Source of the DNA: Terriglobia bacterium
GTDB taxonomy: Bacteria; Acidobacteriota; Terriglobia; 20CM-2-55-15
Direction: 5' to 3'
Length of the DNA: 64,000 bases
NCBI GenBank assembly: GCA_965198225.1
Contig: CBDAOY010000007.1
Coordinates: 704,001 to 768,000, forward strand
In this document: piece after piece, positions 1,893 through 47,285 of the stretch
Position numbering within the stretch: position 1 is the stretch's first letter
How the letters are laid out: each line of letters opens with the position of its first letter
The notes under the pieces: model-generated
The model's database searches: none
The model's input: the letters and a program-made list of their open reading frames with translations, nothing else
What the model was told of the DNA's origin: nothing
Made by a program: the position numbers and the translations under genes

Positions 1893-2644
1893 AGATATGT
1901 CAGGATGATCCGGGTCAGGAAAAAGTCGGAAACCAGGATGAGGATCGATGATACCACCACCGCCTGCGTGGTGGAACGGCCGACGCCTCGCGTTCCCCCG
2001 TAGGTGCGCATCCCGCAGTAACAACTGACCGTGGCCAGGATGCCGCCGAACACCACCGGCTTGAGCAGACCGCCGAGGATGTCGTCGTAGCTGAGCGCGT
2101 CCCAAGCCGAGTTCAGGTACATGTTGGGGCTGATCTGGAGCAGGAAAACTGCGACAAACAGACCTCCGATGATTCCCATCGCGTCGGCGACGATGGTCAG
2201 AAGCGGTTGCATCGTGACGGTTGCGAAGATCCTGGGAACGACCAACTTCTTGACTGGATCGGTTCCCAGCGCGCGCATCGCGTTGATCTGTTCCGTGACT
2301 TTCATCGAGCCCAGTTCCGACGCCATGCCCGAACCCACCCGGCCGGCTACCATTAACGCGGCGAGCACCGGTCCCAGCTCGCGCACGAGCGAAACCGACA
2401 CGAGCGATCCGGTAAAACCGATTGCACCGAATGTGGAGAGCGTCGATGCGGTTTGGAGGGTCAGGACGGCTCCGGTGAAGAAGCCGGTCAGCATGATGAT
2501 GGTCAGCGAACCGACTCCCACCCGATCCATCTGGATGAGGATGTCCCTGAAGTAGAACGGCCGACGGAAGGCCCCCCGGAAGGAACGGCCGGTCAAAACC
2601 GCTATTTCCTGGACCTCGATCACCGCGTCCTTCGGGCTGAGCAT
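1889..2644 (-). CDS. mlaE: MlaE-family ABC permease
   Basis: RELGPVLAALMVAGRVGSGMASELGSMKVTEQINAM and GVGRSTTQAVV motifs. Confidence 0.92.
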   Translation of the reverse strand: MLSPKDAVIEVQEIAVLTGRSFRGAFRRPFYFRDILIQMDRVGVGSLTIIMLTGFFTGAVLTLQTASTLSTFGAIGFTGSLVSVSLVRELGPVLAALMVAGRVGSGMASELGSMKVTEQINAMRALGTDPVKKLVVPRIFATVTMQPLLTIVADAMGIIGGLFVAVFLLQISPNMYLNSAWDALSYDDILGGLLKPVVFGGILATVSCYCGMRTYGGTRGVGRSTTQAVVVSSILILVSDFFLTRIILTYL

Positions 2645-2727
2645 AAGGCATCGTATCGGAAGATCCCTTTTATGGTCAACAGTTAGGCCCTAGTGCAGCT
2701 CCTTCCCGGTGGGCTATACTTGAGTCA

Positions 2728-3915
2728 ATGTTGAGCTTCAAAACAGCTGGCGAATCCCACGGACAGGCGCTGATCTCTATCGTCGAGGGGCTTCCGGCCA
2801 ATCTCGAATTCGACACGAATTTCATCAATGAAGAGCTTCGGCGGAGGCAGGGTGGCTTCGGGCGTGGTGGCCGAATGAAGATCGAGTCGGACCAGGTTCG
2901 AGTCCTCTCCGGGGTTCGACACGGTAAAACTCTCGGCAGCCCGCTCGCGATGATGGTCGAGAACCGCGATTGGGAGAACTGGCGCGACGTCATGTCGGTC
3001 GAACCCGTCACTCCCGAGGTCGCCGAGAAGCGACGGGTGACGCGACCGCGACCCGGCCACGCAGACCTGACCGGCTCCCAGAAGTTCGACCAATCCGACG
3101 CTCGAAACATCCTCGAGCGCTCCAGCGCCCGCGAGACGGCTGCCCGAGTGGCCGCCGGGGCCGTGGCCAAGCTCCTGCTGCGAGCCTTCGGCATCGAAGT
3201 CCTCAGTCACACCCGCTCGATCGGGGAAGTCCGTCTGGCGGAAGATTTTATGGTCGAGTGGGCGCAGTTGGAGGCTATTCGTGATGATCTCATCGTACGC
3301 TGCGTCCTTCCCGGCCATGCCAACCGCATGGTAGAGGAAATCAAGGCGGCCCAGCGCGACGGCGACACGATCGGCGGCACGTTCGAGGTGGTTGCTCGAG
3401 GAGTCCCCGTCGGATTGGGTGCGCACACCGGCTGGGAACAGAAACTTGATGGACGTCTCGCGCAGGCCGTGATGTCGATCAACGCTGTCAAGGCAGTGGA
3501 AGTCGGTGACGCAGTTCGTGTCGCCTTCAGCCGGGGCTCGTTGGCCCATGACGAGATCTCGTTTGATTCCGATACCCGTCGATTTGATCGGCTCACGAAC
3601 CGGGCCGGTGGGATTGAAGGCGGCATGAGCAACGGGGAGAACGTCCGCGTTGTCGGATACCTGAAACCGATCCCGACGCTGAAGAAGGCCTTGAAGTCGG
3701 TCGACATGGTGTCGAAGGAACCGTTCATGGCCCAGCATGAACGCTCCGACACCTGTACGGTTCCGGCTGCGGGTGTTATCGGAGAGACCATGGTGGCGCT
3801 GGTTCTCGCCCATGCGATGACGGAAAAGTTCGGCGGCGATTCGATTGATGAAAGTCTAAGAAACTACAGGGGATACCTCCAGCAATTGCGTGATTTCCCG
3901 ACCAGCGGTGATTGA
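2728..3915 (+). CDS. aroC: Chorismate synthase
   Basis: TAGESHG, RPRPGHADL, ERSSARET, NRAGGIEGGMSNG, KPIPTL motifs. Confidence 0.97.
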   Translation: MLSFKTAGESHGQALISIVEGLPANLEFDTNFINEELRRRQGGFGRGGRMKIESDQVRVLSGVRHGKTLGSPLAMMVENRDWENWRDVMSVEPVTPEVAEKRRVTRPRPGHADLTGSQKFDQSDARNILERSSARETAARVAAGAVAKLLLRAFGIEVLSHTRSIGEVRLAEDFMVEWAQLEAIRDDLIVRCVLPGHANRMVEEIKAAQRDGDTIGGTFEVVARGVPVGLGAHTGWEQKLDGRLAQAVMSINAVKAVEVGDAVRVAFSRGSLAHDEISFDSDTRRFDRLTNRAGGIEGGMSNGENVRVVGYLKPIPTLKKALKSVDMVSKEPFMAQHERSDTCTVPAAGVIGETMVALVLAHAMTEKFGGDSIDESLRNYRGYLQQLRDFPTSGD

Positions 3916-22646: not shown

Positions 22647-22715
22647 GTGTAGGTGCGGTCTATCACCCGCACAGTCTTCGAGCCGAAACGATGTGCGCTC
22701 ATAGAGCGCACCTAC
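22647..22715. repeat. GTAG-type REP doublet (REPIN); single copy at 22412-22443
   Basis: gtgtaggtgcggtctatcacccgcac ... gtgcgctcatagagcgcacctac, an inverted pair of palindromes with GTAG/CTAC ends. Confidence 0.8.
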
Positions 22716-22734
22716 GCCCCTCGTCTGATCGGTC

Positions 22735-23376
22735 CTAACACTCCTCGTGGCACTGTTCGCCCCGAATACCCTCCAGGCCTTCCCGGATGAGCCAGGGGAC
22801 CATGATGAGAGCGGCCGCGGGGTCCGCCCACCACCAGCCCGCGAGGGAGTTGGCAGCGAGCCCGGTCAAGAGCGCCAGCGAGAGGTAGGAGCACGCGAGC
22901 GTTTCCTTCGCTTCGGCCGACAGAGCAGCGCTTCCGATTGCGCGTGCGGCCCGGATCTTTCCCCAGGCGATCAGGGGCATGATCATCAGGGAAAAGGCCG
23001 CCAGAATGATTCCGACGGTGCTTTCCTCGGGAGGGCGGCGTGAGAGCAGAATCCAGAAGGCCTGGAGAGTCACGTAGGCGGCCAACAGGACGAACGTGAT
23101 GCCCACGAAGCGGTGCACCGAGCGCTCGGTTTGTTCGATCACCTCCGGCTCGGCTCCTCGGGCTTCCACCCTCAATCGCCACAGCAGCAATGAGGCCGCC
23201 GCGCATTCGATCACACTGTCCAGCCCGAACCCCATCAGCGCTATGCTTCCGGCAACGTAGCCCGACCAGAGCGCCACGGCGGCCTCGATCAGGTTGTAGC
23301 CGATCGTCGCCACAACCAGGCGAGTCGCGAGCTTGGTCCAATCAGTCCGTGAGGGGCCGACGTCGACGTTCATCAC
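22735..23376 (-). CDS. Cation efflux (CDF-like) transmembrane protein
   Basis: YNLIEA, SIALMGFGLDSVIE, GWWWADP; about 6 TM helices; C-terminal CHEEC. Confidence 0.85.
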   Translation of the reverse strand: MMNVDVGPSRTDWTKLATRLVVATIGYNLIEAAVALWSGYVAGSIALMGFGLDSVIECAAASLLLWRLRVEARGAEPEVIEQTERSVHRFVGITFVLLAAYVTLQAFWILLSRRPPEESTVGIILAAFSLMIMPLIAWGKIRAARAIGSAALSAEAKETLACSYLSLALLTGLAANSLAGWWWADPAAALIMVPWLIREGLEGIRGEQCHEEC

Positions 23377-36582: not shown

Positions 36583-36656
36583 GGTGTAGGTGCGGTCTAT
36601 GACCGCACAATTCATCAAGATGCGATATTTGTGCGCTCACAGAGCGCACCTACACC
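36583..36656. repeat. GTAG-type REP doublet (REPIN)
   Basis: ggtgtaggtgcggtctatgaccgcac ... gtgcgctcacagagcgcacctacacc. Confidence 0.85.
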
Positions 36657-42598: not shown

Positions 42599-43111
42599 AT
42601 GACTTCAAGCGACCTGGCTTCGACCATTCGAGCGCGCCTCCCCTATCTCGGTCTCGTGGGTATCATACTGCTTCTGGACCAGTGGTCGAAGTCAGTAATT
42701 CAGGACACGTTCAGCCTGGGTCAGAGCCTGACGGTCCTCGGCGGCTTCTTCGACCTGACCTACGTCCATAACACCGGTATCGCTTTCGGCATTTTTTCCT
42801 CAGTCAGCTCGCCAGCCAAGGCCGCCCTTCTGTCGGCGTTCGCGGCGGTGGCCGCTGTCGTTGTAGTCGTCTATAGCATTCGGAACCCTCCGGGGCACCG
42901 ACTGCTGCAGCTCGCTCTGGCCTTGATCCTGGGTGGAGCGCTCGGCAACCTCTACGATCGAGTGGCCCACGGGTACGTCATCGACTTTGTTCACCTGCAT
43001 GCCGGGAGTTACTACTGGCCGGCCTTCAATCTTGCGGACGCAGCAATATCAGTCGGTGTCCTCTTTCTTGCCGCGGAAATCATCCGAGATGAGATTGCAG
43101 CCCGGGCCTGA
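42599..43111 (+). CDS. lspA: Lipoprotein signal peptidase
   Basis: DQWSK, NTGIAFG, GGALGNLYDR, VIDF, FNLAD. Confidence 0.95.
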   Translation: MTSSDLASTIRARLPYLGLVGIILLLDQWSKSVIQDTFSLGQSLTVLGGFFDLTYVHNTGIAFGIFSSVSSPAKAALLSAFAAVAAVVVVVYSIRNPPGHRLLQLALALILGGALGNLYDRVAHGYVIDFVHLHAGSYYWPAFNLADAAISVGVLFLAAEIIRDEIAARA

Positions 43112-44018
43112 TGATCGCGGGATCCGGCTGGACATTTTCCTGTCCCGTTTCGTGGCCGACCTTACTCGCTCCAAGCTGCAGTCGATGAACCGACGCGGCG
43201 ACGTCCTGGTCGACGGGCGTTCCGAGAAAGCCGGTTATCGAATCCGGGGTGGCGAGGAAATCGAAGTCAGGTTACCTGTGCCAGCGCCCCTGACGGTCGA
43301 ACCGGAAGCGATTCCGCTCGCTGTCTGCTACGAAGACCAGGACATTGCGGTCGTCGACAAACCTGCCGGTCTCGTCGTCCATCCCGGTGCCGGTAACCGC
43401 AGAGGCACCCTCGTCAATGCGCTGTTGGACCGATTCAACGATTTGTCCGACGCCGGAGGGAGCGATCGCCCCGGGATCGTTCACCGGCTCGACAAGTGGA
43501 CTTCCGGCCTCATCATCGTCGCCAAGAACAACCAATCCCACCATCGCCTGTCGAAGAGTTTCGAGAAACGCCGGGTCGGGAAAACTTATCTGGCCCTCGT
43601 CCATGGAAATCCCAGAGCCGGCACCGGAGAGATCGATCTCAGCATCGGTCGCGACCGCAAAGCCCGGACCAAAATGTCGGTGCGTCACGAGGGCGGGCGC
43701 ACCGCGCTTTCCGAATACCGGACTCTGGAAAAGCTGAAAGTGTTTTCGCTGCTGGAAGTCCGTATCCGCACTGGCAGAACCCACCAGATTCGTGTACACC
43801 TGAGTGCAATCGGCCATCCCGTGGTCGGTGACAACGTATACGGTGAGAAGGCAAACCGAGTGTTCGCACGAAAGCACGGCGATCTTGGTCGATATTTTCT
43901 TCACGCGTCGGCCATCGAGTTTCCACACCCGGCGACTGGCACGACGATGGAGTTCAGCTCGGCGATCCCGGCCGAACTGGCGCGACTTCTGGAGACGATC
44001 CGCACCGGGCAGGCCTGA
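43089..44018 (+). CDS. RluA/RluD-family pseudouridine synthase with S4 domain
   Basis: RLDIFL, DKPAGLVVHP, RPGIVHRLDKWTSG, TGRTHQIRVH; start set at ATG 43089. Confidence 0.93.
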   Translation: MRLQPGPDDRGIRLDIFLSRFVADLTRSKLQSMNRRGDVLVDGRSEKAGYRIRGGEEIEVRLPVPAPLTVEPEAIPLAVCYEDQDIAVVDKPAGLVVHPGAGNRRGTLVNALLDRFNDLSDAGGSDRPGIVHRLDKWTSGLIIVAKNNQSHHRLSKSFEKRRVGKTYLALVHGNPRAGTGEIDLSIGRDRKARTKMSVRHEGGRTALSEYRTLEKLKVFSLLEVRIRTGRTHQIRVHLSAIGHPVVGDNVYGEKANRVFARKHGDLGRYFLHASAIEFPHPATGTTMEFSSAIPAELARLLETIRTGQA

Positions 44019-44072
44019 GAGATCTCAGAAAGATTTGTCTGTGCCGCGCTCGATCCCTATATTTCTAAGTGT

Positions 44073-44606
44073 CCGAGAAGCGGGTAAGCGGGCAATCGCC
44101 GCCAAGCAGTTGCTTGGCGGAGGAAAGTCCGAACTCCGCAGGGCAGTGTGCCCCGTAACCCGGGGGCCCGTAAGGGACGGAAAGTGCCACAGAAAAAATA
44201 CCGCCGCTGCCCGGACCTTTGAATTCGGGCGAGTATGCGATAGCTGGCCATCTGGTGTAGGTGCGCTCTATGAGCGCACATGGGTCCGGTCTGAAAGATG
44301 TGCGGTCCTAGAGCGCACCTACACGGTTGGTTTCGAGTTCGAGGGTCCGGGCAGCGGTAAGGGTGAAATGGTGCGGTAAGAGCGCACCAGCGGGCCGGTA
44401 ACGGTCCGGCTTGGCAAACCCCACACGGAGCAAGGCCAAATAGGGAAACGTTGGTGCGCTTCGGCGCACCTGGAGGGCGGCCCGTCCAAGTTTCCGGGTA
44501 GGCTGCTGGAGTCCGGGTGCAAGCCCGGGCCTAGATGAATGATTGCCGCCTCGCCGCATTCACGCGGCGAGGAACAGAATTCGGCTTACAGCTTGCGCGC
44601 TCTCGG
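44073..44606 (+). ncRNA. rnpB: RNase P RNA (bacterial type A) with enlarged P12
   Basis: GAGGAAAGTCC, GGAAAGTGCCACAGAAA, AAGGGTGAAATGGTGCGGTAAGAGCGCAC, GGCAAACCCC, GAGCAAGGCCAA, TAGATGAATG, ACAGAATTCGGCTTAC; 5' and 3' ends pair as P1. Confidence 0.95.
44255..44324. repeat. GTAG-type REP doublet inside rnpB P12
   Basis: gtgtaggtgcgctctatgagcgcac ... gtgcggtcctagagcgcacctacac; same family as 22647 and 36583. Confidence 0.85.
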
Positions 44607-44632
44607 ACATACACACAGCACCCGGAGGTCGA

Positions 44633-45571
44633 GTGGCCGTTTACGCAGTCACAGGGGGCGCCGGATTCATCGGTTCCCACATAGCCGAAGCGTTGGCTCT
44701 TCGTCGAGAGACCGTCCGTGTCCTTGACAATTTCTCGACGGGCAAGCGGGCGAACATCGAAACCTTCGAATCCCTCGTAGAAATCCGGGAGGTCGATCTC
44801 GCGGCTGACTCCGGATTGGCGGATCATCTGCGCGGTGTCGACTATGTGTTCCATCAGGCGGCGATCCCATCCGTTCCCCGATCGATGAAGGATCCCGTGA
44901 CGTCTCACCGGGCCAACGTCACCGGGACCCTCAACCTGCTGGTTGCGTGTCGTGAAGCCGGTGTTCGGCGCGTGATCTACGCGTCCTCGTCATCGTTGTA
45001 CGGGGAAAGCGAGGTCTTGCCGAAGCACGAGGAAATGGCACCGCGGCCGATGTCCCCCTACGGAGCTCAGAAACTTTTCGGTGAGATCTACTGTCAGGTC
45101 TTCTTTCGCGCGTACCGGCTCGAGACCGTCTCCCTGAGATACTTCAATGTTTTTGGTCCCAGGCAGGACGCATCATCCCCTTACAGCGGCGTTCTGGCCA
45201 GGTTCATACCCGCCGTGATCGAAGGCAGGCGGCCGATCATCTACGGCGATGGCCGGCAGTCGAGGGATTTTACCTACGTGTCGAACGTCGTCGACGCCAA
45301 CATCCAGGCCTGCACGGCCCCCGGCGTGGCCGGCCACGCGTTCAACATCGCCTGCGGGGATCGGATCACTGTCAAGGAAATCCTCGGCGAGATCAGGGCC
45401 CTCACCGGAAGCGATGTCGAACCGATCCATGAAGATCCGCGTCCCGGCGACATCCTCCATTCGCAAGCCGACATCACCAAGGCTCGAAAAAAGATGGGCT
45501 GGAAACCGGTGGCGAACTTCAGGGAAGGACTGAAGCCGACGATTGAGTGGTATCGGGGAAGAACTAAGTAG
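44633..45571 (+). CDS. NAD-dependent nucleotide-sugar epimerase/dehydratase (SDR)
   Basis: TGGAGFIGSH, ASSSS, YGAQK, RYFNVFGPRQD, RDFTYV; GGAGG RBS before GTG 44633. Confidence 0.93.
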   Translation: MAVYAVTGGAGFIGSHIAEALALRRETVRVLDNFSTGKRANIETFESLVEIREVDLAADSGLADHLRGVDYVFHQAAIPSVPRSMKDPVTSHRANVTGTLNLLVACREAGVRRVIYASSSSLYGESEVLPKHEEMAPRPMSPYGAQKLFGEIYCQVFFRAYRLETVSLRYFNVFGPRQDASSPYSGVLARFIPAVIEGRRPIIYGDGRQSRDFTYVSNVVDANIQACTAPGVAGHAFNIACGDRITVKEILGEIRALTGSDVEPIHEDPRPGDILHSQADITKARKKMGWKPVANFREGLKPTIEWYRGRTK

Positions 45572-46070
45572 GCCGTAGGCCGTTATCCGTAGGCCGTTGA
45601 AAGCGGGTGCGGGGGTTTGTGACCGCCGCGATTCAGATTTGGTTACTCACTATCGACCCAACGGTCTACGGCTTACCGAGTGCTTGTTTTGGCGTCCCGC
45701 CGTCCGGTGGCAGGCGACGGCCTACGGACAACGGCCTACGCCTGGATACGCCGAAGGTGCAGACGGGGTGGTTCCTCGGCCTCAGATCGCGGGCGGGTTC
45801 CGCGGTGGTGCCGGGATCGCACCGCTTGTCGAACTGCTCGCGCTGGAACTATCACTACTGCTGCTGCCGCTCCCGCCACCGCGCAGGAGCTACCGAGTAG
45901 TGAGCCGTTTCCAGAACGAACCTCGTTTAGCGTTCTGCCTTTTCATGGTGTCTCCCTGCGCAGGCCCAGGTGGTTTCAACAACGGCCTACTGCCTACGCC
46001 TGGATGCGCGGGAGGTGCTACAAGGGGTGGTTCAACAACGGACAACGGCCTACGGATAACGGCCTACGAC

Positions 46071-47285
46071 CTACTGCCTTACAGTGATCACAACTTCTGA
46101 CGCGCTCGTGCCACCCCTGCCGTCGTTTGCTACGGCGCGAATCGTGTACTGGCCGGGGGGCAGGCCTGTCGTGTCGAAGGTGACCGATTCGCCGCTACCG
46201 ACGACCTGGCCGCCGGTGCTGGTCCAGGAGTAGGACAGCGGATCGGTGTCCGCATCAAACCCTGTCGCCGTGATCTGGAGCGATTCACCGACCGTGACTT
46301 CGTCGCTCGGAATCTCGAGGACGATGAGAGGAAAGTTGTTGGCCAGGAGCGCGGCGACCGGCTTGGTGTAGCTGACGCCGAATATGAACCCGTCATACTC
46401 GGTGTTGCCCGGAAAGTCTTTATCGAAGCCCCTGTTACGGCGGAATCCCGCGTTGAACACCATCCCAGTGCCAAGCCCTATGAATCGCAGGCCGGCCACC
46501 AAGTCGGTCGGCGCCTGGATTACGTCATTGGGGCTGCCAGCGCCGATGAAGGTCGTGCTGACATACTCGAACACGCCCTGCACGATGCCGCCGCCGATGA
46601 CATCGACGCCGTCAGCGAGCCAAAGGACACCGATGCCGGTCCGCATCTCGTCCTTGATACCCAGTGGAACGGGGGTCACGGCATCCCGTGTTGCGACCAC
46701 TCCCATGCTGGAATGCAGCAGGAACCGCCAGGGCAGAGCTGAGGTGAAGACCAGGTCCAGTCCGCCGTCAACCTCTCCGGTTCCCAGGCCTTTCTCCGCA
46801 TCCGCCGTCGGAATCTTGACGAATCCCGATATGCTGATTCCACCGACGGTGCCCTGCCGGCTTTGGATACGGTACTTGCCGGTGATGATCGTGTCGCCGT
46901 AACCCTCGACGAAACGATCACCGACGAAAGGCAGTTGATTGTAGAAACCCTGCTGGGAAAGATTCCGTGCCGCGATCTGCTTCTGGGTCTCCATCGTCGC
47001 CGTTACGGTGATCCGGCCGGTCAGTCCGTACGAGAAGAAGACAGGTACGGAATTGATGTCGAGATCCTGAGGCGTCCGGTCGAAATTGTTCCACCCGACG
47101 CCGAAGGAAAACTGGTTGCGGTTCAGCGTCTCGACGCTCGGGACCGAGAAGCTGCCCCTGTCTCCTGAGGTCGTTGCGCTGAGTTTCGAAATGCTCGTGA
47201 GGCGGGCCGTTCGCTCCTCTTGACTCTGGGCAGACAGGGGACTGCTGAAAGCCAGCAGGAGGATTGGGAAGACAAATCGTTTCAT
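46071..47285 (-). CDS. Secreted/outer-membrane protein with C-terminal PKD/Ig-like domain
   Basis: Signal peptide, beta-rich body (KIPTAD..KGLGTG), C-terminal DADTDPLSYSW...GQYTIRAVANDGRGG. Confidence 0.7.
   Translation of the reverse strand: MKRFVFPILLLAFSSPLSAQSQEERTARLTSISKLSATTSGDRGSFSVPSVETLNRNQFSFGVGWNNFDRTPQDLDINSVPVFFSYGLTGRITVTATMETQKQIAARNLSQQGFYNQLPFVGDRFVEGYGDTIITGKYRIQSRQGTVGGISISGFVKIPTADAEKGLGTGEVDGGLDLVFTSALPWRFLLHSSMGVVATRDAVTPVPLGIKDEMRTGIGVLWLADGVDVIGGGIVQGVFEYVSTTFIGAGSPNDVIQAPTDLVAGLRFIGLGTGMVFNAGFRRNRGFDKDFPGNTEYDGFIFGVSYTKPVAALLANNFPLIVLEIPSDEVTVGESLQITATGFDADTDPLSYSWTSTGGQVVGSGESVTFDTTGLPPGQYTIRAVANDGRGGTSASEVVITVRQ

Follow-up and report, generated by a model that had tools for sequence, protein, structure and literature searches.

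A REPIN within the P12 Helix of the RNase P RNA Gene of a Terriglobia Bacterium and Its Probable Tolerance

Introduction

How does a mobile repeat come to lie inside the gene for an essential ribozyme, and what becomes of the RNA? The question is raised by the RNase P RNA gene, rnpB, in a window of 64,000 nucleotides (the whole stretch of DNA analysed here) from the genome of a Terriglobia bacterium (G000; an assembly in 9 contigs that is 97% complete). An initial annotation of this window had proposed that a selfish repeat, a doublet of REP palindromes, had inserted into rnpB at a tolerant site in the P12 helix. REPs, and the doublets that they form (REPINs), are extragenic by name and by habit. 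In the account given in PMC3337134, REPINs, the REP doublet hairpins of Bertels and Rainey, are proposed to be mobilised by RAYT transposases in the form of hairpins of single-stranded DNA. PMC3733652 lists GTAG REPs for Proteobacteria, Cyanobacteria, Chloroflexi, and the PVC group and describes REPs that lie inside protein-coding ORFs; the term “RNase P” does not occur in the text of that article as available. As for the host helix, PMC2858038 presents P12 as having no universally conserved nucleotides, as being absent in a few lineages, and as having been called dispensable in cyanobacteria. No published REP, REPIN, or MITE within rnpB was found in the literature searched, the scope of which left out most subscription journals and supplements.

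Results

The gene concerned is intact. The RNaseP_bact_a covariance model (RF00010) matches the plus strand of the window over 525 nt with 287.2 bits (E 7.8e-93; the gathering threshold is 100 bits), and the match, which covers model positions 1-367, is not truncated. The initial annotation was therefore right about the gene itself and a little generous about its length, which it had put at about 530 nt. The Infernal alignment that it had suggested as a check gives this full-model match and locates a 134-nt insertion inside P12; smaller insertions relative to the model are found between P16 and P17 (19 nt) and ahead of the 3' strand of P2/P1 (10 nt). This rnpB is the sole RF00010 match in the 6.4-Mb genome, and rnpA (PF00825, E 7.8e-29) is encoded on another contig, C9. 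The P16/P17 insertion corresponds to a small extra hairpin that is missing from the three other genomes of the genus (G001-G003) and is present in genus g4.

A consensus scan places a promoter-like site around 17 nt 5' of the start of rnpB (1 site compared with a shuffle mean of 0.2); by this pattern match, it is a putative sigma-70-like promoter. A pattern scan of the gene found no terminator-like sites inside rnpB. Since the listed ORF of the downstream epimerase begins at 44543, within rnpB, with its PF01370 domain starting at ORF residue 36, the true start of this gene is probably near the position given in Table 1. A gene for an NAD-dependent epimerase also lies 3' of rnpB in G042. A 191-aa ORF that overlaps rnpB has no Pfam match and was set aside as spurious.

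Table 1. Coordinates of rnpB, its P12 insert, and associated features (window positions unless another contig is named)
Feature	Position	Strand	Basis
Intergenic REP doublet, family of the rnpB REPIN	22649..22715	.	between long ORFs
Intergenic REP doublet, family of the rnpB REPIN	36586..36653	.	between long ORFs
RNA pseudouridine synthase, upstream gene	42933..44018	+	PF00849, E 2.7e-35
Promoter-like site TTGTCT, 17-nt spacer, TATATT (putative)	44035..44063	+	consensus pattern match only
rnpB, type A RNase P RNA	44080..44604	+	RF00010 covariance model (cmscan)
Extended native P12 stem, 5' strand	44204..44227	+	pairs with 44334-44357 in the predicted fold
Unique filler, 5' side, 27 nt	44228..44254	+	outside the doublet consensus, no other genomic copy
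REPIN, head-to-head GTAG-REP doublet	44255..44324	.	REP pattern matches, genomic doublet consensus
REP unit 1 of the rnpB REPIN	44257-44279	+	23-mer match
REPIN spacer, 20 nt	44280-44299	.	between the two REP units
REP unit 2 of the rnpB REPIN	44300-44322	-	23-mer match
Unique filler, 3' side, 9 nt	44325..44333	+	outside the doublet consensus, no other genomic copy
Extended native P12 stem, 3' strand	44334..44357	+	predicted fold
Small extra hairpin GGTGCGCTTCGGCGCACC, between P16 and P17	44453..44470	+	cmscan insertions, alignment
NAD-dependent epimerase/dehydratase, downstream gene	44634..45571	+	PF01370, E 3.1e-60
P12 palindrome of G042 (third family)	G042:C24 ~46070-46180

Within P12 lie two REP units in head-to-head orientation, each with a GTAG tetranucleotide at its outer end. 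The 23-nt unit reads GTAGGTGCG[C/G]TCTATGA[G/C]CGCAC, and a search of the window with up to 3 mismatches gives 5 matches, compared with 0 in each of 100 shuffles. Besides the two in rnpB, these are at 22693 (-), 36586 (+), and 36631 (-), and a fourth partner unit, at 22649, has a 1-nt insertion. The kinship that the initial annotation had seen with intergenic doublets near 22647 and 36583 is thus borne out, and so is membership in a REP family, this family being one of high copy number in the genome. The minus-strand unit at 22693-22715 has a GTAG head (22712-22715) that supplies the TAG stop of a minus-strand ORF (22712..23341); GTAG REP heads that provide stop codons of ORFs are described in PMC3733652.

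Genome-wide, G000 contains 879 REP units at up to 4 mismatches, with 312 head-to-head pairs within 120 nt, and a separate search by pattern, allowing 2 mismatches at most, counted 839 units. Among the 292 doublets with spacers of 16-24 nt, a spacer of 20 nt is the mode (153 doublets), as in the rnpB REPIN, and units of the “GCT” and “GGT” subtypes are paired in 248. In the consensus of the 153 doublets that have a 20-nt spacer, conservation starts with GTGTAGG and stops with CCTACAC, and the boundaries given for the element in Table 1 are therefore right; units, spacer, and consensus edges all agree with the 70-nt doublet that had been placed in P12. The rnpB copy departs from the subtype consensi by 2 mismatches, a level of divergence somewhat above that of the median doublet (at most 1 mismatch in 220/292, at most 2 in 267/292), and its 2 arm-to-arm mismatches are the mode of the family. 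Tandem Repeats Finder (minimum score 30) found 0 tandem repeats in the gene, and no REP was found inside the tmRNA, 16S, 23S, or 52 tRNA genes of G000. One of the latter, a tRNA-Val gene at C7:527306-527401 (ARAGORN), is unusually long for a tRNA-Val at 96 nt and is without a REP. At the 60% G+C of this genome, spurious ORFs are too common for an ORF mask to estimate the fraction of REPs that is intragenic.

Within rnpB, two hairpins look much like the REP stem (GGTGCG[C/G]T ... [G/C]CGCAC), namely the conserved hairpin of P13, GGTGCGGTAAGAGCGCACC, at 44370-44388, just 3' of P12, and the extra hairpin between P16 and P17. When the rnpB core is shuffled, one or other of the 8-mers of the REP 5' arm appears in 425 of 20000 trials (about 2%). 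These hairpins could be due to chance or could be a REP mimic that draws the transposase.

The P12 arm has a composite structure. Its base is homologous, by alignment, to P12 of G001-G003, and the two native strands pair in the predicted fold as the initial annotation had them; besides the REPIN, the arm encloses 27 nt and 9 nt of filler on either side of it. Neither filler has another significant copy in G000. With these fillers (around 36 nt) unexplained, the history of the arm must involve more than one clean insertion into a loop like that of G003. A 14-mer of the 3' strand of P12, CGAGGGTCCGGGCA, was considered as another repeat on account of its 16 exact copies. Fourteen of these are in one multi-copy IS element, and the match is therefore taken as a single chance match multiplied by copy number.

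The arm as a whole (44196-44364) folds as one long hairpin with a predicted energy of -108.9 kcal/mol, compared with -62.1 +/- 4.3 kcal/mol for its shuffles (z -11), none of 200 being as stable, and it stays a separate domain in the minimum-energy fold of the full-length RNA. The REPIN is predicted to form a self-contained fold within P12. In the same predicted fold, 6 of the 34 pairs of the outer stem are G.U, whereas the 27 pairs of the REPIN are all Watson-Crick. The G.U wobbles of the outer stem pair on the sense strand only. The sense arm is more stable than the antisense arm (-107.8 versus -86.6 kcal/mol), and nearly all of this 21 kcal/mol gap comes from the outer stem. These predictions fit an outer P12 that is a native helix shaped as RNA and that carries a younger, strand-symmetric palindrome formed at the level of DNA.

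The initial annotation had pointed out that the insert would be suspect if reads did not span it. Contigs from three public runs (X1-X3), which belong to three studies, were compared with the window over 43950-44750. X1 is possibly the source sample; X2 and X3 are under other organism labels, and the library type is unrecorded. Record 1 of X1 (2383 nt) and record 17 of X3 (575 nt) cover 43950-44383 with 0 differences, and X2 tiles the same interval with two exact overlapping contigs. Contigs of all three runs extend into the flanking genes at even, low depth, and none shows polymorphism of the insert within a population. The insert is not a misassembly, since each of these runs, which come from different studies, yields contigs that contain it in identical form.

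Comparison with relatives shows where P12 is empty. An rnpB gene is present in 38 of 40 related genomes. Full-length genes number 37; they measure 346-556 nt (median 397), and that of G000 is the fifth longest. Synteny of the locus holds across the four genomes of the genus (G000-G003). In G002 and G003, rnpB has 397 nt, and P12 is a clean, near-perfect hairpin of around 25 bp without a REP, which matches only its own arms and no dispersed repeat. These orthologous genes provide the empty site that the initial annotation had proposed to look for. In G001, rnpB has 427 nt, and one REP unit, 2 mismatches from the consensus, forms the apical hairpin of P12. Identity across the locus is 69-72% between G000 and the others, which makes G000 the outlier, and 80-81% between G001 and G002/G003. 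Because the outlier G000 and G001 both have a REP in P12, either the REP was gained twice or it was gained once and cleanly lost. The sequences that flank the REPs in P12 are unrelated in the two genomes, which favours two gains, without proof.

The state of P12 in this genus parallels the load of REP units in the genome. The pattern search gives 839 units in G000, which has the doublet, 185 in G001, which has the singlet, and 1 each in G002 and G003, which have none in P12. Elsewhere, the counts are 277 in G006, 663 in G008, 309 in G009, and 221 in G010, and the family was not found in 16 genomes from other families of the class. Among the genomes compared, this REP family is thus restricted to the bacterial family of G000, in which its distribution is patchy.

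Other repeats have entered the same place. P12 was inspected in 26 genomes of the bacterial family (G019 was left out as the anchor motifs failed), and a clear dispersed repeat is present in 7 of them, or in 8 with G006. In genus g3, P12 of G005, G015, and G021 contains a near-perfect palindrome of 33 bp, the arm of which, GGGGTCAGAGCCCTATTTCCC, is a dispersed inverted repeat that often forms doublets; there are 43, 46, and 20 such arms in the three genomes, respectively (at most 3 mismatches), and 0 in the G017 and G006 genomes. By eye, at least one position of this palindrome has changed on both sides of a pair, from T-A in G015 to C-G in G021 or the reverse. G044 has a single g3 arm in P12; in G043, P12 is short and the element absent. 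In genus g7, a perfect palindrome of around 50 bp occupies P12 of G042 in place of the TTT loop of G041. The arm of this palindrome has 34 copies in G042 and 0 in G041, G009, G023, and G000. Neither the g3 nor the g7 element is related to the GTAG REPIN (an equal score is reached by 416 and 866 of 1000 shuffles, respectively), and these two elements have a marginal likeness to one another near their ends only (46/1000 shuffles). On these comparisons, the repeats in P12 represent at least three independent events.

Two genomes of genus g4, G006 and G016, have P12 inserts of 129-155 nt, and P12 of G022 is short. The insert of G006 includes a REP-like stretch (22/26 positions; 0 of 1000 shuffles as good), and this variant is not repeated within the G006 genome. 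The likeness of the G016 insert to a REP is not significant (62/1000 shuffles), and P12 of G022 has none. The P12 hairpin of G017 was rejected as a dispersed repeat, as it matches only its own arms.

An enzyme that could have moved the REPIN was sought in G000. In this 97%-complete assembly, there are 0 PF01797 matches for a RAYT, and tblastn with the Y1 proteins of relatives gives best E-values of 0.068-0.13. Two Y1-like remnants, at C6:1056740-1057345 and C8:596284-596889, are 100% identical and N-terminally truncated; they are part of a duplication that spans at least 2.6 kb (100% identity) and are without REP flanks. Their ORF has 45% identity to residues 120-275 of a 278-aa protein of G003. 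The mobilising enzyme of G000 is either in the unassembled 3% or lost. Given that a RAYT is missing from the assembly, the insertion may be old, or an enzyme since lost may have mobilised the REPIN in trans. A Y1 transposase gene flanked by REPs is the hallmark of a RAYT. In G001, an ORF of 163 aa for a Y1 transposase (2296-2787, minus strand; locus L049, G001:C70 2174-2824) has REP flanks of 3 + 1 units, and this ORF is likely to be the RAYT of the rnpB-REPIN family. The Y1 gene of G008 has no flanking REP within the 2.3 kb examined. G012 has 117 Y1_Tnp matches, mostly to a 180-nt fragment that has in-frame TGA/TAG stops and is present in dozens of copies, suggesting that an element of the IS200/IS605 type, or its remnants, underwent a large burst.

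Discussion

It is highly probable that a REPIN inserted into the distal part of P12 in the single functional rnpB of this bacterium and was tolerated there. This reading is supported because the element is a typical member of its family, the site is empty in close relatives, the gene is a single-copy, full-model match with an rnpA to accompany it, and the contigs span the insert. The original proposal of a selfish repeat at a tolerant site in an essential ribozyme gene is sustained by the same family membership, by the empty site of G002 and G003, and by the intact core of the gene.

The likely sequence of events is as follows. The REPIN, a non-autonomous element made of two inverted GTAG-REP palindromes, would have been mobilised by a RAYT (a Y1/HUH enzyme) as a hairpin of single-stranded DNA and would so have transposed into distal P12. 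The tip of P12 faces away from the catalytic and substrate-binding core, which would allow an insertion to be tolerated. The REPIN would fold on itself, and P12 of the transcript would only gain around 27 bp atop a native stem that is already long. The enlarged RNA would be active, with the insert remaining in it. If the insertion was indeed tolerated in this way, retention of the insert in the mature RNA is the likelier outcome, held with less assurance than the insertion itself.

Expression data were sought in a sponge metatranscriptome, X4. It contains an exact contig of 239 nt (44364-44602, depth 132) that corresponds to the 3' half of rnpB, and no contigs over 44220-44327 or 44085-44111. 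The DNA contigs likewise break at 44364-44383, in a conserved stretch where the assembly graph branches, and the start of the X4 contig at this place therefore has no bearing on the presence of the insert in the RNA. In three runs that carry one and the same organism label, with no type on record, the share of words is equal (~0.46). Judging from the exact match, the source organism or a near-identical relative is present in the sponge RNA library, a setting remote from soil.

Two kinds of known insert resemble the present one. Short tandemly repeated repetitive (STRR) elements are arrays of tandem heptamers. They reportedly lie within P12 of rnpB in heterocyst-forming cyanobacteria, in work attributed to Vioque (1997, Nucleic Acids Res 25:3471), to which PMC2858038 refers for the dispensability of P12 in cyanobacteria. 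The likeness is that of a repeat found genome-wide that has come to lie within a type A RNase P RNA gene, in P12; the difference is that STRRs are tandem heptamers, whereas the repeat described here, in another phylum, is a palindromic mobile element in the form of an inverted doublet with 0 tandem arrays. STRRs in cyanobacterial P12 are the closest published precedent. The other kind is the intervening sequence (IVS), known from Coxiella among others, that occurs in bacterial 23S rRNA at helices 25 and 45, according to PMC4990558. Here too, a selfish or foreign hairpin with a long complementary border stem is found at the tip of a peripheral helix in an essential structural RNA. However, the host RNA, the type of element, and the size differ (70 nt here, 100-450 nt for the IVS), and the IVS is described in PMC4990558 as being excised by RNase III.

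As for REPINs elsewhere, the rnpB element has their inverted, GTAG-headed imperfect palindromes, short spacer, hundreds of copies that seem to lie mainly outside genes, and capacity to fold as one long hairpin; singlets likewise occur beside doublets, and a Y1 gene has REP flanks in G001. It differs in that the rnpB copy is within the gene for an essential structural RNA rather than intergenic and in that G000 is without a detected RAYT.

Could the arm be cut after transcription by RNase III, as in the case of the 23S rRNA, to leave an RNase P RNA in two pieces? The predicted substrate is long, with an outer stem of around 27-30 bp and a REPIN stem of 27 bp, and RNase III is encoded in G000. 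The enzyme excises rRNA intervening sequences that have a stem of around 28 bp, leaving an rRNA that is fragmented but functional, as set out in PMC4990558. By inference, a cut at the tip of P12 would leave the two halves paired via P1, P2, P4, and other helices. However, the outer stem is interrupted by six G.U wobbles and by internal loops, and near-perfect P12 helices of around 25 bp are present even in the “empty” relatives, which means either that RNase III does not cut such helices or that splitting is common and independent of the REPIN. Moreover, the STRR-bearing RNase P RNA of cyanobacteria is reportedly full-length, which counts against splitting. Cleavage of this kind is therefore considered unlikely. 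An assembly artefact, or a REPIN in a dead copy of rnpB, is scarcely credible: REP repeats can confuse short-read assemblers, and the genome is in 9 contigs, but the contigs of X1-X3 span or tile the insert with 0 differences, and the genome has one match to the full-length model together with rnpA.

A further possibility is that the REPIN has been co-opted in P12, as a site to which a protein or nucleoid factor binds, as a rod that stabilises the S-domain, or as a regulator of the level of the rnpB transcript. Consistent with this, the sequence of the insert is identical in the contigs of three runs from three studies, a repeat-bearing P12 persists in three g3 species with at least one two-sided pair change, and REPs are described as binding host proteins and as affecting the fate of mRNA (PMC2817692, PMC3479197). 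However, close relatives manage without a REPIN in P12, and the rnpB copy has no adaptation specific to this gene, its arm-to-arm mismatches being those of the family mode. Furthermore, the presence of three unrelated sequences at the same place in P12 argues for tolerance rather than for a sequence-specific role. Co-option is accordingly held to be very improbable, and insertion with tolerance is preferred.

The recurrent colonisation of the P12 tip by several families of repeats is the most interesting part of these observations. From the genomes compared, the tip seems to be a safe landing site for repeats. A bolder version would have it as a preferred landing pad, used independently by at least three families, each with a series of none, half, and full insertions among close relatives, and with rods of 50-60 bp that are cut by RNase III. 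Taken jointly, these propositions are rather improbable; if they were true, these bacteria would run on a natural two-piece RNase P ribozyme.

On the preferred reading of insertion and tolerance, a typical REPIN in the single gene for an essential ribozyme would mean that a structured RNA can absorb selfish DNA if the latter is self-folding and sits at the end of a peripheral helix. The relatives provide natural alleles of rnpB (insertion, half-insertion, and empty) for three elements: a series of none, singlet, and doublet in two genera and a clean replacement of the loop in a third. This series bears on whether the length of P12 is neutral for RNase P, on whether RNase III spares long perfect helices of a stable RNA, and on whether hairpin transposons target hairpin loops. 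In practical terms, rnpB genes of 450-560 nt with a P12 filled by repeats may be mis-annotated or may come out broken in short-read assemblies. Finally, large rnpB genes also occur in two other families of the class, where those of G026 (554 nt) and G028 (549 nt) are enlarged in several helices, namely in the P3 loop, in a hairpin after P7, in P12, P13, and P16-17, and at the P19 position.
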